From the NCBI GenBank assembly GCA_934089275.1, contig CAKOJJ010000004.1:6196-70195 (forward strand): a stretch of DNA of 64,000 nt, given 5' to 3'. A program made the position numbers and the translations under genes. The notes beneath the pieces are model-generated. The model made no database searches. It was given only the letters and a program-made list of their open reading frames with translations, and had not been told where the DNA came from. Positions 424 through 62,189 of this stretch are shown one piece after another. Source of the DNA: an uncultured Bacilli bacterium (GTDB taxonomy: Bacteria > Bacillota_I > Bacilli_A > RF39 > UBA660). Numbering within the stretch: position 1 is the stretch's first letter; every line of letters begins with the position of its first letter.

Positions 424-776
424 TGGTGGAGCCGGGGAGATTTGAACTCCCGTCCAAATTACTTTCAAAGTAGCGTCTACAGGTTTAGTTAGAAATAAAA
501 TTTCATAAGTACAAAAGCATCTAACAAACTAATACTTACTATCTTATAAATTATTCGTTCACGTCATATAAGAACTAACGTAAATATAAACCACATATAT
601 GAACCAATATTTTAACTGTGGATGATTAAAATACCAGCCTCCTTGCTAAATTTTAAGCAAATACTGGAGAAAAATTAAAACCTTTGTCAGTTAATTTTAA
701 GTTTTGCTATTTAAAGTATAGCTACTACCTGCAACTAAATCAAAACCATAATCTGTCGAAACCAAATTACGGCCCC
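424..776 (-). ncRNA. ssrA: tmRNA (SsrA)
   Basis: Minus-strand 5' end GGGGCCGTAATTTGGTTTCGACAG and 3' end GGACGGGAGTTCAAATCTCCCCGGCTCCACCA (T-arm plus acceptor plus CCA). The acceptor stem has a G3:U70 pair. The internal reading frame ends ...GGT TTT AAT TTT TCT CCA GTA TTT GCT TAA. Confidence 0.9.
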
Positions 777-16150: not shown

Positions 16151-16203
16151 AATTACCTCCAAAAAAATGTTGAAAACTTTATATATATTTAAATATAAAA
16201 AAA

Positions 16204-16274
16204 GCACACACAATTAGAGGCTGTTATGGCTGCTGTATTCCTACTCTGACCAAATTCCAACATAATTGTTGTGC
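16204..16274 (-). ncRNA. ffs: small (4.5S-like) SRP RNA
   Basis: Minus strand GCACAACAATTATG...GGTCAGAGTAGGAATACAGCAGCCATAACAG...TAATTGTGTGTGC forms a long hairpin. Its apex resembles the SRP domain IV consensus (GGUCAG..GGAA..CAGCAGCCAUAA). A U-run follows. Confidence 0.55.
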
Positions 16275-16370
16275 AAATTAATTATAGCAAAAAAGATAAC
16301 ATATAACAAGATAAAATGAGTGTACAAATTTTTAAAATTTGTTATTTTATTTAATTAATCTATATAATCA

Positions 16371-50236: not shown

Positions 50237-50560
50237 TTAATACTCAATTTTTTTAAAAGTTAAAGGATCTTCACTTATTACTTCTAATGCATATTTAATC
50301 CTTAAAAGTTTTCCAACTTCTGTAGATACATTTACTTCATTTATTTCTGTGATGTTTAAAATATCTCTTGCTGAATTGAATTCTTGCATCCACGTTGTCT
50401 CATACATAGCATGTCGATAATAAGCATTAGCTATATAATAAGAAATAACCTCAGGAAGTATATAACATTCTAGATATTCATCATAGTTGTCAACAAATGG
50501 TTTTAATACTTTAATATATTCCTCATCCGTTATATCTTCTCCAGTCTCAGGTCTAATCAT
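50237..50560 (-). CDS. hypothetical protein (paralogue of 61440-61754)
   Basis: Shares ...ITDEE(Y/F)... and overall length and pattern with the 104-aa ORF at 61440-61754. ATG at 50560 follows GGAGGTG. Confidence 0.45.
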   Translation of the reverse strand: MIRPETGEDITDEEYIKVLKPFVDNYDEYLECYILPEVISYYIANAYYRHAMYETTWMQEFNSARDILNITEINEVNVSTEVGKLLRIKYALEVISEDPLTFKKIEY

Positions 50561-50690
50561 ATTCACCTCCAAATATTGTTCTATTAATCACTTATTAATA
50601 ACTATATTACAAGTATAATAATCTATTAAAATAAGGTTCCTAAGTATTATATAAATATGTTATAATTATTAAGGAAGATAGGAGGCTAAC

Positions 50691-51569
50691 ATGAAAAAAG
50701 AAGTAATTAGTTCACCAATACGTTGGGCTGGTTCAAAGAAAAAACTCCTAAATGAAATGCTTGAAAAACCCTTTAAAAGAAAGAAGAAAAACTATGTTGA
50801 ATGTTTTCTAGGATCAGGCGTCGTATTATTAAATGTTATTAATAATAATGAGGAATTAGAATATGAAAACTTTTATGTAAATGATATTAATTCAAACATT
50901 ATTAATTTTTATATTCTTTTACAAAAAAATCCTGACTATCTTATAAATACTATAAAACCTTTGAGTGAAAAGTATAACAGTTTATCTATAAATGAAAAAT
51001 CTGATTTATTCTATGAAATCAGAAATAGATTTAATCGTTCTGAAGACTCAAATGAGAAGTCAATATATTTTTATTTTTTGATGAAAACGGGATTTAATGG
51101 CGTTTATAGAGAAAATAGCAAAGGCTATTTTAATGTGCCGTTTGGAAGAAAAGAAAAAATAATAATAGATGATAATTATTTATATACAATATCTAGGTTA
51201 ATAAAGAGGGTTAAGTTTTATAATTTGCCATTTGAAGAATTTCTAAATAAATTGAACAAAAAAGGTATTTTAGAGGATTCTTTTGTGTATTGTGATCCGC
51301 CATACTTACCAGATGATTTGCTAGTTTATCAAAAGCAAATGCTTTATACAAAAGATTCGTTTAATCACGAAAAATTCTTTGATATAATCAATGAAATGAA
51401 AATTGATAATATAATGATTTCAATGTCTGAATCTAAAATCGCAGATAAGATATATAATCATAATCCATTTTACAAAATAGATGTAAGAAATATTATTAGA
51501 GTTATTAATCCAAAAAAACTATTCTCATCAAAAGAAATAGCTTACATTAATTACAGAATAGAGGAGTGA
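50691..51569 (+). CDS. D12-class (Dam-like) N6-adenine DNA methyltransferase
   Basis: RWAGSKKKL N-terminus, FLGSG (FxGxG) then DPPY (VYCDPPYLP), which is the alpha-group motif order. Confidence 0.85.
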   Translation: MKKEVISSPIRWAGSKKKLLNEMLEKPFKRKKKNYVECFLGSGVVLLNVINNNEELEYENFYVNDINSNIINFYILLQKNPDYLINTIKPLSEKYNSLSINEKSDLFYEIRNRFNRSEDSNEKSIYFYFLMKTGFNGVYRENSKGYFNVPFGRKEKIIIDDNYLYTISRLIKRVKFYNLPFEEFLNKLNKKGILEDSFVYCDPPYLPDDLLVYQKQMLYTKDSFNHEKFFDIINEMKIDNIMISMSESKIADKIYNHNPFYKIDVRNIIRVINPKKLFSSKEIAYINYRIEE

Positions 51570-51626
51570 AAAAACACTCTTTTTTTATACAAAAAAGGAA
51601 ATAAACATAAAATATTATGAAAATAT

Positions 51627-51655
51627 TTGACAAATATTGTTCTTTTTGGTATATT
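51627..51655 (+). promoter_or_regulatory. sigma-A type promoter of the four-gene GHKL operon
   Basis: TTGACA-17 nt-TATATT. Confidence 0.6.
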
Positions 51656-51678
51656 TTAAGCGAATGGAGGAAATGTTT

Positions 51679-51894
51679 ATGGATGTTAAAAAAGAAAATT
51701 TTAAAAGAATTGCAGAAAACAGAGTTAGCAAGATTATTGATTTAATATCTAAATTACATAATTTATCAAACACTTCATTTTATGAGTATACTGATGAACA
51801 AATAGATAAGATTTTTGATAGTATACAGAAAGAACTTGATAAGCAAAAAGCCGAGTTTAAAAAATCAAAAAACAAAAGGAGAATAGAATTATAG
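51679..51894 (+). CDS. small coiled-coil protein, first gene of the GHKL operon
   Basis: 71 aa from the ATG at 51679, 8 nt after GGAGG. The track start at 51637 lies inside the promoter. Confidence 0.5.
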   Translation: MDVKKENFKRIAENRVSKIIDLISKLHNLSNTSFYEYTDEQIDKIFDSIQKELDKQKAEFKKSKNKRRIEL

Positions 51895-51906
51895 GAGGTA
51901 ATTAAT

Positions 51907-53862
51907 ATGTTTGATAAAATTTTTAACAATAAAAAGAGTGATCCTGTTTGGCAATTTATTACAAATGGAAATGCTGATATGAATAGTGTAGAATCTACCG
52001 ATACTGAAAGCTTTCAAAAAGTTCCAATTGATTCTTTAGCAAGAGAATTAACACAAAACTCATTGGATGCAAGAGCAGGTGAAAAGCCAGCTGTAATAGA
52101 ATTTAAGACTTTCACTATGAGAACTATTGATATTCCAGGAATAAAAGAATTGAAAGATGAAATATCTGCTTGTATTAATTTTTATCCTGAAACTACTATG
52201 TATCATAGAATGTTTAAAAAAATGTTAGATGAATTAGAAAAAGAAAATATTTTATGTTTAAGAATAAGTGATTTTAATACTTCAGGATTAGATGGAGTGG
52301 CAAGTAATAAAAATATGACACCTTTTAATTTTCTAGTAAAAGGTAATGGATTCTCAAGTAAAAAAGGTGCTAATAGCGGTGGTTCTAAAGGAATGGGAAA
52401 ATTCTCTACCTTTTTATCTAGTAGCATTCATACAGTTTTTTACTCAACTCTAAATCAAAATAAAGAAAAAGGATATATGGGAGTAGTAAAACTTGGTGCT
52501 AGAGAAATAGATGATGATTCAGGATTAATGACAACTGGAAAAGGATATTTCAGCATAGGCGAAAGAATTTCACCAATTTTAGAAGATCTAAATCTTGATA
52601 AAGATTTTAAGAGGGAAAAAGATGATGTTGGAACTGATGTTTATGTTTTAGGTTTCAAAAAACCTTCAAATTGGGAAACACAAATTATTGCAAAAGTATT
52701 AGATAGTTTTATGGTTGCAATTGATAGTGGAGATTTAGAAGTTAAAGTTGAAGATAAAGGAATTATTAATAAAGAAACTTTACAATCTTTTGTTTATGAA
52801 ACAAAGTTCTATAAAGTAGATAAAAGAAATATAGAAAGTCAATATGAATTACTACATGATAAATTTGTTCATTCAAAAGAAGTTGATATTCATGGTAGAG
52901 GAACAATAGAGTTTAAACTTAAAGAATATCATAGAGAAGAACGTGAAAAAGCTACTAATAAATGTATAATGATAAGACATCCATACATGAAAATTAAAGA
53001 TTTAACAATAGGATATCCAGTAGCTGCTAGTGCCATGTGTATTATTAAAGAAAATGAACTTAATCAAATGCTAAAAAATATTGAAAATGCAGAACATACA
53101 AATTGGGAACCAAAAAGAATAGAAACAATAACTGGCGATCCGTTAATGGAAAAAGAAATGAGAAGAATTTTAAGTGATATAAAAGATGAATTGGATAAGT
53201 TTGTGTTAGAAGCTCTATTGTCAGGAAAATCAGAAAGAATTGATTTAGAATTTGCAGGAGATTTTCTTCCTGACTTAAGCACTGGTGATGATAACGCATC
53301 TATTCAACAAGAACCTATTCCTGATATTCCAAATGTTGGTGAAGTTGAGAGAATTAAAGATAATAATAAGTTTGGAACAGTTGAAGATGAAAATGCAAAT
53401 TCAATTACTCCAGATATTGGAAGTCATAGTGAAGAAGGCGATGAATCAATTATTCCTGATGGTAATAATTCCAGTGGTTCTGGTGATGTTCATGAAGGAG
53501 AAAATGAAACTGGATTTAATCCAGAAGGAGATGATGTAGTTATGAGAAAAGTTCGTTTAAGCAATTTAAAGCCAAAAGTATTAATGCTTGACAAGAAAAA
53601 TGGAAAATATTTAATTACATTTAAAGCACCAGATAACATCTCTTCTGCCGAATTGGAATTCTATTATTTAGATGATAATGATCAAAAGTATATTCCTACA
53701 ATTAAGGCTGCTAGAATTAATAATGGGCAATGTAATATAGAAGACAATAAAATCGTTGGATTCACTATGAAAAAAGATGAAGTAATAAAACTCGAACTTG
53801 AAACTGATTTGAATGATATATATGCATGTGAGGTGAAGGTCTATGCCAAAGTTAGCGAATAA
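51907..53862 (+). CDS. GHKL (Bergerat-fold) ATPase, MutL/MORC-like N-terminal domain, with acidic linker and C-terminal beta-rich domain
   Basis: N-box ELTQNSLDA (compare MutL ELVENSLDA), LRISDFNTSGL (DxGxG-like), GGSKGMGKFS (G2 box) and VGTDVYVLGF (GT motif). Confidence 0.75.
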   Translation: MFDKIFNNKKSDPVWQFITNGNADMNSVESTDTESFQKVPIDSLARELTQNSLDARAGEKPAVIEFKTFTMRTIDIPGIKELKDEISACINFYPETTMYHRMFKKMLDELEKENILCLRISDFNTSGLDGVASNKNMTPFNFLVKGNGFSSKKGANSGGSKGMGKFSTFLSSSIHTVFYSTLNQNKEKGYMGVVKLGAREIDDDSGLMTTGKGYFSIGERISPILEDLNLDKDFKREKDDVGTDVYVLGFKKPSNWETQIIAKVLDSFMVAIDSGDLEVKVEDKGIINKETLQSFVYETKFYKVDKRNIESQYELLHDKFVHSKEVDIHGRGTIEFKLKEYHREEREKATNKCIMIRHPYMKIKDLTIGYPVAASAMCIIKENELNQMLKNIENAEHTNWEPKRIETITGDPLMEKEMRRILSDIKDELDKFVLEALLSGKSERIDLEFAGDFLPDLSTGDDNASIQQEPIPDIPNVGEVERIKDNNKFGTVEDENANSITPDIGSHSEEGDESIIPDGNNSSGSGDVHEGENETGFNPEGDDVVMRKVRLSNLKPKVLMLDKKNGKYLITFKAPDNISSAELEFYYLDDNDQKYIPTIKAARINNGQCNIEDNKIVGFTMKKDEVIKLELETDLNDIYACEVKVYAKVSE

Positions 53863-54760
53863 GAATTATCCATATCCAATTATTACAAAAGATGCCTCAT
53901 TGAGTTCATATAATGGTATATCATATTCATTTTCTTTTGAAAAAGAAACAAATGAAACTCAACTAATATTAAAAAATGCCAAAATAGAAACAGACAGTAA
54001 AAGTTTAATTAATTTATTAAAAGAGAATAAAGTTAAGGCAGTTGTGTTTGTTTCATGCACTAAAACATATTTTAGATATACAACAGAAATTGGAACAGAA
54101 CCAAGAGATATTGTTTTGAAACTAAGTGATTTGAAAGATAAAGTTACTATTTCAGCATATGTATTTGCAAATGAAGAACTTGTCGAATATAAAAGTGATG
54201 AATGTAATGAATATTACAAAGATTATAGCTTTGATATAGATAAATATTGTTTATTTGCTATTGATGATGGATATAAATTGCCAGTAGAATATGATGATTA
54301 TAGTGATAAAAAAGTTTCATCAATATTTAGTGTTGCTGAAATTGAGGAAGATGTAGATAGATTAATAAAAGTTTATCCTGAAGAAAAAAATATTGTTATA
54401 GCTATACCCAAAAAAGAGTGTGAAGATTATTATAATATGAAAGATTTAGAAGATTATTCAGCTTTGTTTTTATCTTTACTTGGATGTCCAGCATTAACCA
54501 CTTGTTTGAATGAGCTTCAAAAAGAGGGAAAAGCTATTGAAGAAATAGTAGAGCAATATTCATGGTTTAAAACAATAGTTAAAACATATAAAAGAATAAA
54601 TGGCGTTGATTTAGATGATAGTTTATTTGAGCAAATGAATTGCTTTGAATTCTCCCAACAAGCATTGGGAAATTGCAATGTTACAGCAATATCAACAATA
54701 TTAACTAATTATCAAAAAGCCGTTAAATCAGCTAATGAAGATGAGGAGGAAAGTGAATAA
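53843..54760 (+). CDS. hypothetical protein, third gene of the GHKL operon
   Basis: 305-aa ORF overlapping the upstream stop by 20 nt. No motif recognised. Confidence 0.55.
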   Translation: MPKLANKNYPYPIITKDASLSSYNGISYSFSFEKETNETQLILKNAKIETDSKSLINLLKENKVKAVVFVSCTKTYFRYTTEIGTEPRDIVLKLSDLKDKVTISAYVFANEELVEYKSDECNEYYKDYSFDIDKYCLFAIDDGYKLPVEYDDYSDKKVSSIFSVAEIEEDVDRLIKVYPEEKNIVIAIPKKECEDYYNMKDLEDYSALFLSLLGCPALTTCLNELQKEGKAIEEIVEQYSWFKTIVKTYKRINGVDLDDSLFEQMNCFEFSQQALGNCNVTAISTILTNYQKAVKSANEDEEESE

Positions 54761-55563
54761 TGAGTAAAATAAATATAGAATATACAACTGATAATACAGT
54801 AAGTTATTTACATACAAATCCTGACTTTGTTAAGAAAAAAGTTAACGATAATATATATGATTCAAGTTGGTTAAATGAATCATTAAACGATCAACCATTT
54901 ATTCCGTTAAAATATAAAGTAGAAGATTTTGATTTGAAACTAGATGCTAATGACAATTACAATAAAGTAATGATAGATAATGCAATTACATTATATGAAA
55001 GCCTAAAAGATTTACCAAGAAGGCTTTTGACAGAAGAAAGATTTTGGCTATGGATTACATTTAAGAAATGTTATAGAGCATCAATTCAAAGCATGGGAGA
55101 TAGGATAGAAGGACAATGGATTTTTACAAGAGGAATTCCGAGAAGTATATGGTTTAATGTTCATTCTAGAAGTTATTTTTGGGTTGAATGCACAGTGAAA
55201 GATGATTCAAATGACAAATATGAATATACAAAATTCGCTTTGGAAAAAATAGAAAGAATAAGGAATTTAACATTTGATTCTAATAAACCTAAAAATATAA
55301 TTTATAATGCTGTTAGAGCAGAAAAAGCTATATATGATAAATATTCTAAAAACCCTGAATATGAAGAAGTCTATAAAAAATGTGAATCAGGTAGTTTAGG
55401 ACTTAATATCTATGAAAAAATAAGAAAAGATATTTCTTTATATGGTAGTGTTAGATTACTAAGTGTAATGTCAGATGAAGATATATTCAAATTTGTATAT
55501 AATAAAATAGAAAAGATAATATTAGAAGTAAAGAATGGTAATACAAGCATTCTTTCAAAATAA
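54760..55563 (+). CDS. hypothetical protein, fourth gene of the GHKL operon
   Basis: 267-aa ORF with TAATG stop/start overlap. Trp/Arg-rich central block (RFWLWITF...RSIWFNVHSRSYFWVE). No family recognised. Confidence 0.55.
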   Translation: MSKINIEYTTDNTVSYLHTNPDFVKKKVNDNIYDSSWLNESLNDQPFIPLKYKVEDFDLKLDANDNYNKVMIDNAITLYESLKDLPRRLLTEERFWLWITFKKCYRASIQSMGDRIEGQWIFTRGIPRSIWFNVHSRSYFWVECTVKDDSNDKYEYTKFALEKIERIRNLTFDSNKPKNIIYNAVRAEKAIYDKYSKNPEYEEVYKKCESGSLGLNIYEKIRKDISLYGSVRLLSVMSDEDIFKFVYNKIEKIILEVKNGNTSILSK

Positions 55564-56999: not shown

Positions 57000-58385
57000 A
57001 TGAAAAAAGGTAGATTATACAATAGACAGGAAATACAATTAATATCTAAATCAGCAATTGGTAAATCAATAAATGATATTATGAATGAAGAAGTAATTAC
57101 AATTGGTGAGAATAATATTTCTAATAAAGGAAGTTTAGGACAACTTGTAGAGCAATTCTTATTTGGTATGGAGAATAATAGCGAATCAGAACCTGATTTT
57201 ATGCCAGCTGGTATAGAATTAAAAGTAACTCCTTATAAAAAAATAAAAGGTGGAAAATTATCTGCAAAGGAAAGATTAGTTTTAAATATTATAAATTATA
57301 TGGATGAATACAAGAATGATTTTGAGAATAGTCATTTTTGGTTTAAAAATAAAGCTATTCAATTATTATGGTATTTATGGGAACCAAATAAAGATACGAA
57401 AGATTTAAAAATAACACATGAAAAGCTATTAGAATTAACAGAAAATGAAGATTTAAATCAGATAAAAGAGGATTGGGAATACATAATTAATAAAATAAAA
57501 GAAGGAAAAGCTCATGAAATATCAGAAGCAGATACAATGTATTTAGGAGCTTGTTCTAAGGGTGCAAATGCTAGTTCGGTTCGTGAACAACCATTTAGTG
57601 ATATACCAGCTATGCAAAGAGCGTTTTGTTTTAAAAATTCTTATATGACTCAGTTAGTTAGAAAGTATATTGGTGATTATTCTGATGTAGAAAAAATCCT
57701 TAAGGGTACAACCAATACATTTAATGAATTTATTGATAACGTAATTAATAAATATAAAGGTAAATCTCAAAATGAATTGATGAAAGAATTTGATATAGAT
57801 TCATCTGCTAAGAATATTAATAATATGATTGTTAGTAGAATGTTTAATGTAAAAAGTAAATTAGCTGAAACAGAAGAATTTCAAAAAGCTAATATTGTTC
57901 CAAGAACTATTAGAATTGAAGAAAATGGTAGAATTAAAGAATCACTTTCTTTTCCAGCATTTAAATTTACTGATATAGTAGAACAAGATTGGGAATCATG
58001 TGATTTAAGAGAAGAATTGGAAACAACTAAATATATGTTTTTTGTGTTTAAAAAAGAAAAAGATGATTATATATTTAAAGGTATTAAGTTATGGAATATG
58101 CCAGAAATGGATATAGAAACATCAGTTATGGAAATGTGGAAGAAAACATATAACACAATTAAAAGTGGAAATATTGTTAGATATATTAAAGATGGTAAGA
58201 GAAAAACTAACTTCGTAGGAATGAGTGAAAACGAAGTTTGCCATGTAAGACCTCATGGAAGAGATTCAAAAGATACATTTAAATTACCAGTAGCTGATAA
58301 ATTAACAAAAGCAACTGAATATACTAAACAATGCTTTTGGATTAATAATAGTTATATTAAAGAAATATTTAAAGAATTTCTTTAA
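57000..58385 (+). CDS. type II restriction endonuclease, MutH/Sau3AI family (GATC-type)
   Basis: NKGSLGQLVEQFLFG...SEPDF...GIELKVTP and IKEDWEYI blocks match the MutH catalytic core (D...ELK). The size fits two-domain Sau3AI. Divergent from the C5 methyltransferase gene. Confidence 0.85.
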   Translation: MKKGRLYNRQEIQLISKSAIGKSINDIMNEEVITIGENNISNKGSLGQLVEQFLFGMENNSESEPDFMPAGIELKVTPYKKIKGGKLSAKERLVLNIINYMDEYKNDFENSHFWFKNKAIQLLWYLWEPNKDTKDLKITHEKLLELTENEDLNQIKEDWEYIINKIKEGKAHEISEADTMYLGACSKGANASSVREQPFSDIPAMQRAFCFKNSYMTQLVRKYIGDYSDVEKILKGTTNTFNEFIDNVINKYKGKSQNELMKEFDIDSSAKNINNMIVSRMFNVKSKLAETEEFQKANIVPRTIRIEENGRIKESLSFPAFKFTDIVEQDWESCDLREELETTKYMFFVFKKEKDDYIFKGIKLWNMPEMDIETSVMEMWKKTYNTIKSGNIVRYIKDGKRKTNFVGMSENEVCHVRPHGRDSKDTFKLPVADKLTKATEYTKQCFWINNSYIKEIFKEFL

Positions 58386-58432
58386 TGTGTCTATTTGTGT
58401 ATATATATAAATTAGTGTGATATAATGTTTAT

Positions 58433-58558
58433 ACATCTTATAAAGAGAGATTGAGGGACTAGCCTTATGAAATCTCACCAACCTATTGAGTTAGGTGGTA
58501 AAGCTAGATCTATAAGGTAACTTTTATTAATACTTAGAGTTACTCTAAGTTTTTTTTT
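58433..58558 (+). promoter_or_regulatory. SAM-I-like riboswitch (P4-less variant) with intrinsic terminator
   Basis: The leader TCTTATAAAGAGAGATTGAGGGACTAGCCTTATGAAATCTCACCAACC...TTAGGTGGTAAAGCTAGATCTATAAGG matches the S-box core. P1 is CTTATA/TATAAG and P2 is GAGAU/AUCUC. P3 has a bulged A. The pseudoknot is CUAGC/GCUAG. Terminator ACTTAGAG-TTA-CTCTAAGT followed by T8. A TGaTATAAT promoter lies at 58418-58426. Confidence 0.75.
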
Positions 58559-58616
58559 ACTCCTTTATAAGATTAGGAAGGAGGATTGTATAATATTAAT
58601 ACCTTTTCAAAAAGAA

Positions 58617-58796
58617 ATGGATAAAGAACGATGGATAATAATAAATAGATTTCAAAAAAAGTATAAGACAAGTAAAGAAAAGGAAGAAGCCTTAAAAAAA
58701 ATGGTAAATAAAGATATTAATTTTCTAATTTATTGTTCTGATAATTTATATGCAAATATTTTTTATTCTAAGTTTTTAAAAAAAGAAGAAAAATGA
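58617..58796 (+). CDS. small hypothetical protein (59 aa, not in the ORF track)
   Basis: ATG at 58617 to TGA at 58794-58796, translating MDKERWIIINRFQKKYKTSKEKEEALKKMVNKDINFLIYCSDNLYANIFYSKFLKKEEK. The GGAGG at 58580-58584 lies about 30 nt upstream, so the true start is uncertain. Confidence 0.35.
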   Translation: MDKERWIIINRFQKKYKTSKEKEEALKKMVNKDINFLIYCSDNLYANIFYSKFLKKEEK

Positions 58797-58821
58797 TAAA
58801 ATAAATGTGAGGAGTGGTGCT

Positions 58822-59067
58822 ATGAAAGATGATTTATTTAATTATTTGGTAGCTACTGATACTTTAGATGAGTTTTTGGGTAAGAAACCTATAATTATTT
58901 CAAATAAAGTAAAATGTATAAATTGTGGTGAAATAATAGAATCTAAAACAATAAATGATTTTAAAAGATGTTCTTGTGGAAAAATTGCTATTGATGGTGG
59001 TAAAGAATATTTAAAAAGAATTGGAAATGAAGAGGATTATATTGAATTAAGTGAAGTAGAAGAATAA
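58822..59067 (+). CDS. small zinc-ribbon protein
   Basis: CINCG...CSCG four-Cys ribbon followed by IDGGKEYLKRIG. ATG at 58822 follows GAGGAG. Confidence 0.55.
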   Translation: MKDDLFNYLVATDTLDEFLGKKPIIISNKVKCINCGEIIESKTINDFKRCSCGKIAIDGGKEYLKRIGNEEDYIELSEVEE

Positions 59068-59068
59068 A

Positions 59069-59137
59069 TGCGTCACTTGCGTCACTTGATTATAGGGGAG
59101 TACTAAATTTAAGTGTCACAAGTGTCATAAGTGTCAT
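59069..59137. repeat. 9-bp-periodic AAGTG/CACTT repeat set (2 inverted + 3 direct)
   Basis: TGCGTCACT x2 at 59069-59086, then AAGTGTCAC, AAGTGTCAT and AAGTGTCAT at 59111-59137. Confidence 0.6.
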
Positions 59138-59139
59138 TG

Positions 59140-59162
59140 GCTAGATAAATCTAGCTTTTTTT
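59140..59162 (+). terminator. weak rho-independent terminator
   Basis: GCTAGA-TAAA-TCTAGC followed by T7. Immediately followed by a TGgTATAAT promoter at 59164-59172. Confidence 0.5.
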
Positions 59163-59202
59163 GTGGTATAATATATTAAATTAATTCTTTTTGGGAGGTT
59201 GT

Positions 59203-61392
59203 ATGATACAAGAAATAAAACTTAAAGATGTAGCTACTTATAAGGACGAAAAATTAACATCAAAAAAAATTAATTTTATATATGGAAATAACGGAACTGG
59301 AAAAACGACAATTTCTAGATTTATAGAGAATCCAAATGAGTTAAAATTTAGTAAATCTAAAATTAATTTTGACGAAACTGGTGAATGTAATAAATTAATT
59401 TATAATCAAGATTTTGTGAAAATTAATTTTAATCCAGAAACAGGACTAAGAGGTATATATACTTTTGGTGAAGAATCAGAAGAAAAATATAAACTTATTG
59501 AAAAATTAAAGAAAGAAAAAGATGAATTAAAAATAAAACTTATACAGAATAAAACAAAAATTGACAATATGAACAATAGTATTATTGATATTAAAAATAA
59601 AGCTACTAATAAATTATGGGATACTTTAAAAAAGAAATATTGCGACAATACTCCTGAATTGTACAAAGGATATTTAGGGAAAAAAGACCAATTTTTTTCT
59701 AAATGTATTAGTGTGGAATATACTGATGATGTTTTAGATAATGACAAGATTGTCAAAGAATATAATTTATTATATAAGGAAGAACCTATAGAAAAGAAAT
59801 TATTACAATCTGTAGATTTTACTTCAATTGTTCCTATTAAAAATAGTGAAATATTTCAAACTGAAATTATTGAAAATAAAGATATTAAGTTGTCAAAATT
59901 GATTGATGATTTAAATAATGGTAATTGGGTTGAAGAAGGTCTATCATATTTAGATCATTCAGATAATAAATGCCCATTTTGCCAACAAGACATTACAAAA
60001 GAATTTATTAATAAAATATATGGACTTTATGATGGAAAATATAAAAAAGAAAAAGATGAGTTTTTTCTTAAAAGAAATTCTTTAATATATAAAATAGATG
60101 AATTTAAGAATTTTATATTAGAAAATGCTTTATTAATAGATGATTCTGAATTGATTGCAAATATTAATTTATATTTTGATAAAGCATTAGAAGAATTATC
60201 AAAAAAAGAAAATGATTTAAAATATAAATGTAGTTTTCCTGAAAATGATGAAATTTTTGATAGAATTGAAAAAAAGATAACCGATGTAAATAAATTAATA
60301 ACTGAAAATAATAATAAAATTAAAGAAATATCTACAAGTAGACAAAAATTATCAGATAATGCATGGAAATTTTTAAGAAATAGTTGTGAACTTGAATTGA
60401 AAGAATACTTTAAAGAAACGGAAAAAAACAATATAGAGTTAAAAAAGGTTATTGAAGATAATGAAAAGATTAATACTAGTATTCAAGAAATTGATGTTGA
60501 AATCAAAAAATTAGAGGATTCTATTACAAGTATCACAAAGACAATTACGCAAATTAATACAACTTTAGAAAAATTCAATTTTACTAATTTTAAATTAAAA
60601 GGAAATGAAGATCATTTAACATATTCAATTATTCGCCCTGATGGTTCTAACGCATCTTCAACATTAAGTGAAGGGGAATTCAGTTTTATTTCATTTTTAT
60701 ATTTTTATAATCTTATTTTTGGCAGTAGAACGAGAAGTGGATTAGAAGAAAATCATATTTTAGTAATCGATGATCCTGTAACCAGTATGGATAGCAATAC
60801 TTTATTTATTATTAGTACTCTTGTACGAGAATTGATAGAATTATGTTTGAATGACAGAAGACATATAAAACAAATATTTATTTTTTCTCATAATTTATAT
60901 TTTTTTAAGGAAGTTGCATATGGATATGATGATGCAAGAAAGAGATTAAATAGGGAAAATGTTGAATTTGCAGTTGTTTCTAAAGTTAATGGAGAATCAC
61001 AAATAAAATCATTTGGTTGCACAAATACAATCAAAACATCATATGAATTATTGTGGAATAAATTGAGAGAAAAAGAATTTGATGATGATTCAATTCAAAA
61101 TACTATGAGAAGAGTTTTAGAACAGTTCTTAAAAATGATTGATTATGGTGGACCAAATAATCGTAATACAGAATTAATAAATATGTTTGATGATATTGAT
61201 AAACCTATTGTTAAATCCTTATTAAGTTATATTAATGACGGTTCTCATAGTATTATGGACGACTTATATATATCACGTGATGCAACAGCTAATGAAAATG
61301 CCTTGAAAATTTTCAAACAAATATTTATAAAATTGGGCTTTAAAAATCATTATAATAGAATGATGAATGAAACCGAAGAAGAAGATAAATAA
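59203..61392 (+). CDS. AAA_13-type ABC-like ATPase, RloC/PrrC-like anticodon nuclease candidate
   Basis: GNNGTGKTT Walker A, CPFCQQ zinc hook, long coiled coil, LSEGEFSF signature and ILVIDDPVTSMD Walker B. C-terminal RRVLEQF ... NDGSHS matches the R-x3-E ... H pattern of PrrC/RloC nuclease domains. Confidence 0.7.
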   Translation: MIQEIKLKDVATYKDEKLTSKKINFIYGNNGTGKTTISRFIENPNELKFSKSKINFDETGECNKLIYNQDFVKINFNPETGLRGIYTFGEESEEKYKLIEKLKKEKDELKIKLIQNKTKIDNMNNSIIDIKNKATNKLWDTLKKKYCDNTPELYKGYLGKKDQFFSKCISVEYTDDVLDNDKIVKEYNLLYKEEPIEKKLLQSVDFTSIVPIKNSEIFQTEIIENKDIKLSKLIDDLNNGNWVEEGLSYLDHSDNKCPFCQQDITKEFINKIYGLYDGKYKKEKDEFFLKRNSLIYKIDEFKNFILENALLIDDSELIANINLYFDKALEELSKKENDLKYKCSFPENDEIFDRIEKKITDVNKLITENNNKIKEISTSRQKLSDNAWKFLRNSCELELKEYFKETEKNNIELKKVIEDNEKINTSIQEIDVEIKKLEDSITSITKTITQINTTLEKFNFTNFKLKGNEDHLTYSIIRPDGSNASSTLSEGEFSFISFLYFYNLIFGSRTRSGLEENHILVIDDPVTSMDSNTLFIISTLVRELIELCLNDRRHIKQIFIFSHNLYFFKEVAYGYDDARKRLNRENVEFAVVSKVNGESQIKSFGCTNTIKTSYELLWNKLREKEFDDDSIQNTMRRVLEQFLKMIDYGGPNNRNTELINMFDDIDKPIVKSLLSYINDGSHSIMDDLYISRDATANENALKIFKQIFIKLGFKNHYNRMMNETEEEDK

Positions 61393-61439
61393 TCTTATAT
61401 ATGAAAACTAGATGATTGAGTTCATCTAGTTTTATTATT

Positions 61440-61754
61440 CTATAATTTAATCATTTGTGATGTTTTTCTATCAACTATCTTTAACTTATATTTATCTTTT
61501 AATATTTTATCTAATTTATCATAATTAAATATTCCATCAAGTAATGAATCAGTAAATCTAGTTAATGCTGAATTGACTTGTTGCTCTAATGTACATTCCC
61601 ACAATGCACTCATTTCATATCCTATAGCTAAGTAATGTGCAACATATTCATACATATATTTTATTAAGTATTTATCCATTTTTTTATCAAATGGAATTAT
61701 TATGTTTAAAAACTCTTCATCAGTGATATTACCACAACTATTTTTCCTTATCAT
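61440..61754 (-). CDS. hypothetical protein (paralogue of 50237-50560)
   Basis: 104 aa with the shared ITDEEF block. An operator-like palindrome lies upstream. Confidence 0.45.
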   Translation of the reverse strand: MIRKNSCGNITDEEFLNIIIPFDKKMDKYLIKYMYEYVAHYLAIGYEMSALWECTLEQQVNSALTRFTDSLLDGIFNYDKLDKILKDKYKLKIVDRKTSQMIKL

Positions 61755-62189
61755 TTTAATTCCTTCCTTTTCATTTTACCCATCAGCCACCCATCAATTT
61801 TAGTGAATTTTGATGGGTAGAATTTTACTTTTTTAAACTGTAAGTCTTGAAAAACGTTGATTTTACAGGGTTTTATACCATCGATCTATGTGCTAATAGC
61901 CACCCCCCCTGAAGAGAACGAAAGTTCTCATTTTTGAAGTATAATTTCTTTTTTTATTTATATAAACAACCATATTTTTTATCATTTAAAGAAACAAGAA
62001 TTATTATAAAATTGTTCAATTTTTAGAAAGCCATTTTTTTACACTGTATTCCGAGTTTCTAACTTGCTTATATCTTGCTTAAATTCTATCTAAAGTACAA
62101 GATTCCATATCTATTGCTATATTTATACATATTTAAATAATGACTTTTTGCTAGAAAATTGATACAATAAATTTAGAAAGTTGGTTACT

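Follow-up and report, generated by a model that had tools for sequence, protein, structure and literature searches.

A SAM-I-class riboswitch without P4 ahead of a small two-gene cassette in a bacterial defence island

The RNA encoded at 58435-58518 of the window, the window being the whole 64-kb stretch of DNA that was analysed, is a true member of the SAM-I class of riboswitches in a natural form that lacks P4. Together with the terminator that follows, it probably works as an OFF switch on an autonomous cassette of two genes, a small open reading frame (ORF) and a gene encoding a DUF7695 protein, in a response to low SAM that concerns the supply or the economy of SAM. SAM-I is among the best understood of RNA switches and its regulon is thought to be that of sulfur, methionine and SAM metabolism. 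What is new here is the cargo and the context of the switch, not its architecture. The elements of the leader are as follows.

58418..58426 (+): extended -10 promoter TGaTATAAT, read from the sequence
58435..58518 (+): P4-less SAM-I-class aptamer, from the RF00162 score, covariation and the unconstrained MFE fold
58435-42 with 58511-18 (+): P1
58447-51 with 58472-76 (+): P2a (P2a/P2b with k-turn-like GA/UGAA)
58455-57 with 58463-65 (+): P2b
58477-85 with 58492-99 (+): P3, with A58481 bulged
58459-62 with 58504-07 (+): pseudoknot between the P2 loop and J3/4, CUAG with CUAG, 4 bp
58513..58524 (+): 5' arm of the antiterminator, UAAGGUAACUUU, pairing with 58536-58547, from covariation and folding
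58532..58559 (+): intrinsic terminator with an 8-bp stem, UUA loop and U run, from a terminator scan
58536-58547 (+): 3' arm of the antiterminator, AGAGUUACUCUA, lying within the terminator (end of its 5' strand, loop and start of its 3' strand)

The match to RF00162 (SAM-I) on the + strand at 58435-58518 scores 60.4 bits against a gathering threshold of 44.4 in Rfam cmscan, with an E-value of 1.7e-11 for the whole 64-kb window, which bears out an earlier note on this DNA that had placed a SAM-I-like aptamer here and had named covariance models as the check. The alignment follows the model from end to end, but model positions ~77-97, those of P4, are deleted. Moving 3' from P3 there is AAAG, the pseudoknot strand CUAG, AUC and then the 3' strand of P1, with only G-CUAG-AUC between P3 and that strand, so the lack of P4 and the AUC spacer are as the note had described them, and so are the helices, the bulged A, the k-turn elements and the pseudoknot, all of which are present. 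The strongly conserved nucleotides of the SAM-I core are all matched in the Rfam alignment (CUUAU, AAGAG, GA-GGA, UGAA, CAACC, AGGUG and AA). These matches, along with the finding of the same RNA upstream of a SAM synthetase-like gene in related loci, suggest that the aptamer binds SAM. The extended -10 element TGaTATAAT that had been pointed out at 58418-26 is indeed in the sequence, with TGnTATAAT or TATAAT at an equal distance from P1 in most relatives. A simple -35/-10 scan made no call at 58418-58426 because the -35 is weak, and transcription likely starts just 5' of P1.

The lack of P4 does not exclude membership of SAM-I, because natural P4-less sequences have been reported in the Rfam SAM-I alignment, mainly from one group of Actinomycetota (PMC12714719). 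The P4-less architecture is a known kind of variation, which is now seen in low-GC gut bacteria. With SAM-I (RF00162) the RNA has in common P1, P2 with its k-turn elements, P3, the pseudoknot between the P2 loop and J3/4, the core nucleotides, the OFF logic of a terminator and an antiterminator, a home in low-GC Gram-positive-type genomes and, in some members of the family, the control of a SAM synthetase-like gene. It differs in that P4 is absent, and absent in low-GC gut bacteria rather than mainly in Actinomycetota (PMC12714719), in that the constant cargo is a 68-aa protein, and in that the second cargo in the window is a protein of defence islands.

A resemblance to SAM-IV or SAM-I/IV architectures had also been suggested, and this does not hold. 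Both families (RF00634 and RF01725) belong to the same clan, with a common ligand-binding core, and SAM-IV is likewise without P4 inside the junction, but SAM-IV adds a P5 hairpin 3' of P1 and a second pseudoknot, PK-2 (PMC6890682), whereas in the window only the terminator hairpin comes after P1. SAM-I/IV has an unsplit P2 and no PK-1 (PMC6890682), whereas here P2 is split into P2a and P2b (GA...UGAA) and PK-1 is present and co-varying. The loop of P3 varies among relatives (UUGAGU, UUAAGU, UUUAGU, UUAAAU, UUAGAU) without a matching change downstream, and a SAM-IV-like form with PK-2 was rejected on this lack of co-variation and on the lack of any equivalent of P5/PK-2. In the Rfam clan competition SAM-I is the best match, scoring above the other members of the clan.

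Relatives of the riboswitch were gathered by fetching loci through both of the downstream proteins, the small ORF and DUF7695. The same leader is found in 38 loci, which reduce to 18 distinct leaders and 14 distinct aptamers, and P4 is absent from 14 of the 14. Ten representative relatives score 59-70 bits on RF00162, all above threshold, and in nearly all variants, the window included, the unconstrained MFE fold is the P4-less three-way junction followed by the terminator. Pairing is kept in 99.7% of the cells of the 14-sequence alignment. Double changes, altering both sides of a pair, are seen in five pairs (three of P2 and one each of P3 and the pseudoknot) and back the helices P1, P2a/P2b and P3, with 0-1 such pairs in slid controls (a single cell); the aptamers are 95% identical on average, so that a small number of independent events may account for the covariation. 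In the locus L132 the pseudoknot CUAGC/GCUAG has become CCAGC/GCUGG, the double change being U26C/A72G, which is found in both L132 and L133. The covarying pairs of the aptamer, though perhaps the product of few events, all lie at expected places.

The strong terminator that the earlier note had read behind the aptamer is called by the scan at 58532-58550, followed by a T run, with 0.0 sites expected in shuffles, and its stems vary among relatives yet remain paired. The antiterminator had been read as CUAUAAG with CUUAGAG, a pairing that contains an A-G mismatch and finds no support, and it is replaced by the pairing of 58513-24 with 58536-47. The 5' arm of this helix takes in the final 6 nt on the 3' side of P1 together with the linker. 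In the window the helix has 12 positions with one A-C mismatch, and in L116-type leaders it has 12 perfect pairs. The nucleotide at 58517, G or A, co-varies with C or U at 58543 in 18 of 18 leaders (11 G-C and 7 A-U), an exchange that is neutral for P1, where the same position pairs with U as G-U or A-U. The helix also forms in folds in which the 5' strand of P1 is blocked.

Taken together the aptamer, the terminator and the supported antiterminator point to an ordinary transcriptional OFF switch of the terminator type with standard S-box logic, as the earlier note had proposed apart from the choice of antiterminator strands. When SAM is high, the binding of ligand would stabilise P1 (58435-42 with 58511-18), and with P1 stabilised the hairpin at 58532-58550 and its U-tract would terminate transcription. 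When SAM is low, the 3' strand of P1 and the linker (58513-24) would pair with 58536-47, which would destroy the terminator and let transcription go on.

The defence-island context that had been described for the riboswitch is confirmed, its neighbours being Dam and Dcm methyltransferases, a type II restriction endonuclease (REase) with a MutH domain, and an AAA_13/PrrC-like ATPase. Downstream of the leader the following features are found.

58590..58796 (+): small ORF of 68 codons, four-helix protein family, from the family alignment and AF2
58822..59067 (+): DUF7695 zinc-ribbon protein, 81 aa, with the N-terminal extension MKDDLFNYLVATDTLDEFLG and its own SD GAGGAG (PF24749, 90.5 bits)
59070..59138 (+): imperfect inverted repeat of tandem 9-mers, end of the conserved block and left edge of a variable slot
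59139..59162 (+): second intrinsic terminator, predicted end of the riboswitch-controlled unit, from the terminator scan (59139-59156) and the fold
59164-72: promoter of the AAA_13 gene itself, TGgTATAAT

Comparison with sister loci by BLASTN gives a conserved block at 55.6-59.13 kb, which takes in Dcm, the MutH-type REase, the riboswitch, the small ORF and DUF7695, then a variable slot at 59131-61377 and a second conserved flank at 61378-61919, with homology breaking at 59128-59137 and at 61378. The slot holds AAA_13/PDC-S06 in the window, L081 and L119, AbiA (RT-HEPN) in L087, a 204-aa protein in L122 and other genes in L105 and L129. The inverted repeat at 59070-59138 is kept whichever gene comes next, and has a fold of -27.1 kcal/mol with a z of -2.85. 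A further locus, L092, has only 58373-59067 in common with the window, a stretch that begins at the promoter, ends with the stop codon of DUF7695 and is 81% identical, and there the flanks are two N6_N4 methyltransferases to the left and, to the right, SSB, a resolvase, RecA and an integrase. This narrow shared block and the exchangeable slot argue that the cassette is an autonomous module, 58373-59067, and that the RloC-like gene is independent of it.

In the window the riboswitch-controlled unit is predicted to be a cassette of two genes, the small ORF and DUF7695, ending at the putative terminator 59139-62. The AAA_13/RloC-like gene appears to lie outside the control of the switch, with a terminator (59139-59156) before it, its own promoter at 59164-72 and a place in a swappable slot, and these features contradict a reading in which the switch triggers the RloC-like nuclease. 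In L122, L124 and L129 an SD is all that separates the cassette from the slot gene behind it, there being neither a terminator nor a promoter. Control of the slot gene by read-through is possible in these three loci, and it is not expected in this window.

The first cargo gene encodes a new family of protein, 68 aa in length and of four helices. The family is under purifying selection, judging by its alignment (...DIxFLIYCSDNLYANIFYSKFLKK), and the AlphaFold (AF2) model is confident, with a pLDDT of 93. Searches of Pfam, PADLOC, PHROGs, PDB sequences, PDB folds and BFVD gave no match to the small protein, the confident AF2 models of the cargo proteins had no meaningful matches in PDB or BFVD, and longer proteins that carry the small-ORF domain, which are possible fusions, had no matches in Pfam. 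Riboswitch and small ORF are constant partners, the aptamer being found in 11 of the 11 lineages in which upstream sequence can be read; a distant relative of the small protein is without a SAM riboswitch. The ATG that the family conserves 5 nt behind GGAGG is replaced in this window by ATA at 58590, and the next ATG in frame, at 58617, is without an SD. Translation of the first cargo gene may be poor here because of this ATA.

A cassette carried by phages or plasmids was also considered, and no sign of one was seen in IMG/VR, INPHARED or PLSDB. Relatives of the small ORF were found neither in IMG/VR nor amongst the INPHARED phages nor in PLSDB, and the junction motif of the cassette is absent from IMG/VR, the matches of cassette DNA in a few phages being limited to the core of DUF7695. 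In other lineages the unit of riboswitch and small ORF adjoins unrelated genes, such as those for a pilin-like protein, ABC exporters and a LysR regulator.

Some related operons have a further gene. In L113 and in L132/L133 the same unit of riboswitch and small ORF includes a gene for a SAM synthetase-like (MetK-like) protein of 260 aa, which keeps the catalytic MetK motifs SHPDK, DTGxTxRK and GGxxHGKDxSKxD and has as its best match in PDB the methionine adenosyltransferase of Ureaplasma. A SAM synthetase gene is a classic target of SAM-I. L115 has the same pair of small ORF and MetK-like gene behind a leader that is interrupted by an insertion and shows no aptamer, the association with the MetK-like gene being limited to three lineages (L113, L132 and L115) of which L115 is the one with the interrupted leader. 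That no sulfur or SAM gene is under the switch applies to the window, whose cargo, the small ORF and DUF7695, includes no recognised gene of methionine, cysteine or SAM metabolism, but not to the relatives L113 and L132, which add the MetK-like gene. The earlier note had also proposed a survey of homologous cassettes, with a consistent link to methionine metabolism rather than to defence loci to count against its view, and the MetK-like gene of L113, L132 and L115 goes part of the way against that view. Of the 11 lineages with the unit, 9 do not adjoin R-M (restriction-modification) genes.

The short MetK belongs to PHROG 1569 and is found in 36 phage records, the phage proteins being 60-70% identical to the MetK-like protein of L113 and L132. 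In phages the gene is followed immediately by adenine and cytosine DNA methyltransferases, and no leader, riboswitch or small ORF was found at these phage loci. The phage system thus differs in having neither riboswitch nor small ORF, and the window differs from it in having no MetK-like gene.

The second cargo gene, DUF7695, is in general a protein of defence and toxin-antitoxin (TA) islands, on which the literature search found no paper. Its AF2 model has a zinc-ribbon-like beta core with a pLDDT of ~90, residues 1-15 are below 50 and the N-terminal extension is predicted to be disordered. DUF7695 has a wide distribution: reference genomes contain 376 loci, and several large phages carry it too. 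Its neighbours in reference genomes include an AAA ATPase in 23 loci, AbiEi/AbiEii, HipA, Fic, XRE regulators and Dcm. On metagenomic contigs DUF7695 without the riboswitch lies directly behind methyltransferase or SNF2-helicase genes in R-M-like operons. The riboswitch as a general feature of DUF7695 was rejected: it is absent from 80 of the 80 reference-genome loci fetched, as searched by regex, nhmmer and a custom model, and from the metagenomic loci L093-L103, and Rfam gave no match in the long gaps that border DUF7695 in reference genomes. Amongst the riboswitch units it is the DUF7695-bearing version alone that adjoins R-M genes.

For the small protein a part in the response to low SAM, by way of SAM supply or SAM economy, is the most economical reading, because the riboswitch consistently accompanies it and some genomes place it in one operon with a SAM synthetase-like gene. 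We infer that the cassette would be a part of the cell's low-SAM response, supplying or saving SAM and probably serving DNA methylation. In this lineage the unit would have gained DUF7695 from the repertoire of defence islands, and its place is now behind an R-M system. The pairing of MetK with methyltransferases in phages and the two R-M-adjacent contexts of the cassette that bears DUF7695 make a link to DNA methylation likely. It could be argued that the loss of P4 ended the binding of SAM or changed the ligand, leaving a constitutive attenuator or a switch for some other signal, since P4 is absent here and, as PMC12714719 reports from Heppell 2011, the shortening or loss of P4 lowers affinity for SAM. 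However, 14 distinct sequences conserve the core, the k-turn elements and the pseudoknot and show compensatory changes, the relatives that were tested pass the curated Rfam threshold and the same RNA precedes a SAM synthetase-like gene, whilst P4-less designs and natural variants are described as responsive to SAM (Trausch 2014 and Heppell 2011, as cited in PMC12714719), and such decay or re-purposing is highly improbable.

Other readings tie the switch to immunity. The earlier note had it sensing the depletion of SAM by phages, for example by SAM lyases, and turning on a backup defence. The cargo would in that case be an effector or an activator of the RloC-like nuclease. Under the OFF logic the cargo would indeed be made when SAM falls, the cassette lies between an R-M system and a gene of the abortive-infection type, DUF7695 is generally found in defence/TA islands and often upstream of AAA ATPases, and L122, L124 and L129 have no terminator or promoter before the slot gene. 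Yet in the window AAA_13 is isolated by a terminator and a separate promoter, the slot gene varies (AAA_13, AbiA, the 204-aa protein and others) while the cassette is fixed, the small ORF is also found in contexts other than defence and beside the MetK-like gene, and neither cargo protein resembles a toxin or a nuclease. Plain methionine starvation would also fire the switch, which would be costly in a trigger of abortive infection, and a sensor of this kind is decidedly unlikely. The cassette might instead guard the cell against its own R-M system, as with low SAM the methyltransferase could not protect new DNA from a MutH/Sau3AI-type endonuclease that does not depend on SAM, and the cargo might restrain the endonuclease or help the methyltransferase and so prevent self-restriction. 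The DUF7695-bearing cassette is in two unrelated contexts that are both directly downstream of R-M genes (Dcm and the REase in the lineage of the window, two N6_N4 methyltransferases in L092), DUF7695 without the riboswitch is likewise directly behind methyltransferase or helicase genes of R-M-like operons, and in phages the short MetK partner goes with DNA methyltransferases. These independent contexts are only two, however, an interaction of the cargo with the REase or the methyltransferase is purely hypothetical, units of riboswitch and small ORF without DUF7695 do not adjoin R-M genes, and in reference genomes DUF7695 is more often with AbiE, HipA, Fic and AAA-ATPase genes than with R-M, so a guard against self-restriction is unlikely. 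The support for both of these readings is weak and circumstantial. A broader form, which is rather unlikely, would have the cassette as a SAM-gated accessory of mobile R-M/defence modules, in which SAM drained by a phage SAM lyase or by starvation would open the switch and the small proteins would neutralise a phage factor that depletes SAM or inhibits MetK, or would restrain the endonuclease and prime the slot gene.

If the broader form were true, anti-phage immunity would here be coupled to an RNA that senses a metabolite, an arrangement not described before; the literature search found no paper that links a SAM riboswitch to defence islands. The response to low SAM, as the preferred reading, already makes for an unusual regulon, in which a well-supported SAM-I aptamer stands before a 68-aa protein that is sometimes accompanied by a phage-type short SAM synthetase and sometimes by a defence-island zinc-ribbon protein directly behind R-M genes. 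It also provides a functional handle on two protein families, both of which would be made at low SAM, and it suggests a connection between the availability of SAM and immunity based on DNA methylation. A riboswitch inside a defence island, it should be cautioned, need not control the defence gene next to it.

Between the terminator and the small ORF lie three further elements.

58560-65 (+): anti-SD CUCCUU
58563-73 (+): second copy of the P1 3' strand, CUUUAUAAGAU, with a UAUAAG element kept in most leaders
58578-84 (+): SD AAGGAGG

A second, translational layer of control, in which the anti-SD and the distal copy of the P1 3' strand would take part, was rejected as a general feature, being absent in L109, L110 and L116 and not predicted by the MFE. 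The hairpin of anti-SD and SD (58560..58584) is itself present in the MFE, and a translational layer is plausible in the lineage of the window alone.

The riboswitch cassette lies among defence genes that are bracketed by a pair of paralogous ORFs, with the tmRNA and small SRP RNA genes of the window indicating, from the sequence, that this stretch is chromosomal. The features concerned are:

424-776 (-), tmRNA gene (111 bits)
16189-16285 (-), small SRP RNA gene (56 bits)
50237-50572 (-), small ORF, left-hand paralogue
50691-55563, Dam-type D12 methyltransferase, then the three PDC-M33 genes A, B and C
58560-58584, P1 3' strand sequence repeated as CUUUAUAAGAU, between terminator and SD
58822-58881, N-terminal module of the DUF7695 protein, MKDDLFNYLVATDTLDEFLG
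59070-59138, imperfect inverted repeat of tandem 9-mers, GCGTCACTT twice and then AAGTGTCAY three times
59131-61377, swappable defence-gene slot, flanks conserved on both sides
61440-61754 (-), small ORF, right-hand paralogue

The two paralogues are 32% identical (E 6e-15), no family match was found for either, and between them they enclose Dam, PDC-M33, the Dcm/REase genes, the cassette and the RloC-like ATPase gene AAA_13. PDC-M33 is a candidate defence system whose C gene is DUF6339, and at the position of Dam and PDC-M33 sister loci carry instead a DEAD helicase paired with a NERD/AAA_19 helicase. To the right of the cassette the variable slot is occupied in the window by AAA_13/PDC-S06, in one sister locus by AbiA (RT-HEPN), and in others by a 204-aa protein, a 130-aa protein or a set of 307-aa and 278-aa proteins. 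Its conserved right flank is the right-hand paralogue and its left edge is the inverted repeat, which is conserved irrespective of the gene that follows and folds at -27 kcal/mol (z -2.85). The repeat might act in recombination, serve as an array of operators or function as RNA. Further right of the slot, CBASS and other systems are found in some loci.

Within the leader of the cassette, CUUUAUAAGAU is perfectly complementary to the 5' strand of P1, the closing helix of the aptamer, together with the P1-P2 junction J1/2, and it overlaps an anti-SD, CUCCUU, that is able to pair with AAGGAG. By its pairing potential this region might form a second, translational control layer, with conservation of the arrangement not seen in all lineages. 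The start of the small ORF, the first cargo gene, is also unusual, with ATA at 58590-58592, 5 nt 3' of GGAGG, where 17 of 17 other distinct leaders have the conserved start as ATG or GTG. As the next in-frame ATG (58617) is without an SD, the small ORF may be weakly translated in the window, or the ATA may be an assembly error.

The module MKDDLFNYLVATDTLDEFLG that begins the DUF7695 protein recurs at L132 3333-3539 and in proteins P0057-P0059, where it is joined to unrelated C-terminal parts. It is predicted by AlphaFold to be disordered and thus may be a docking peptide. In a layout conserved among many of the reference-genome DUF7695 loci (L001-L032), a gap of ~400 nt precedes DUF7695 and one of ~570 nt separates it from a following gene for a 414-449-aa AAA ATPase. 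No Rfam match was found in these gaps in the 6 loci sampled, so they may hold small ORFs or unknown RNAs.

At three relative loci the small ORF is paired with a gene for a 260-aa SAM synthetase-like protein:

L132 6207-6989
L113 5207-5989
L115 654-1436

This protein keeps the catalytic motifs at a length ~120 aa below any solved MetK and belongs to PHROG 1569, annotated as 'unknown function'. DNA methyltransferases lie directly downstream of its gene in 36 phage records, and in some bacteria the gene appears, on sequence, to be under riboswitch control. In L115 (1-660) the leader of the operon is broken by a repeat-rich insertion of ~620 nt, with the 20-nt leader tail CTATAAGATGTAGAAAGGAG duplicated on both sides, a pattern like that left by recombination or when a target site is duplicated.
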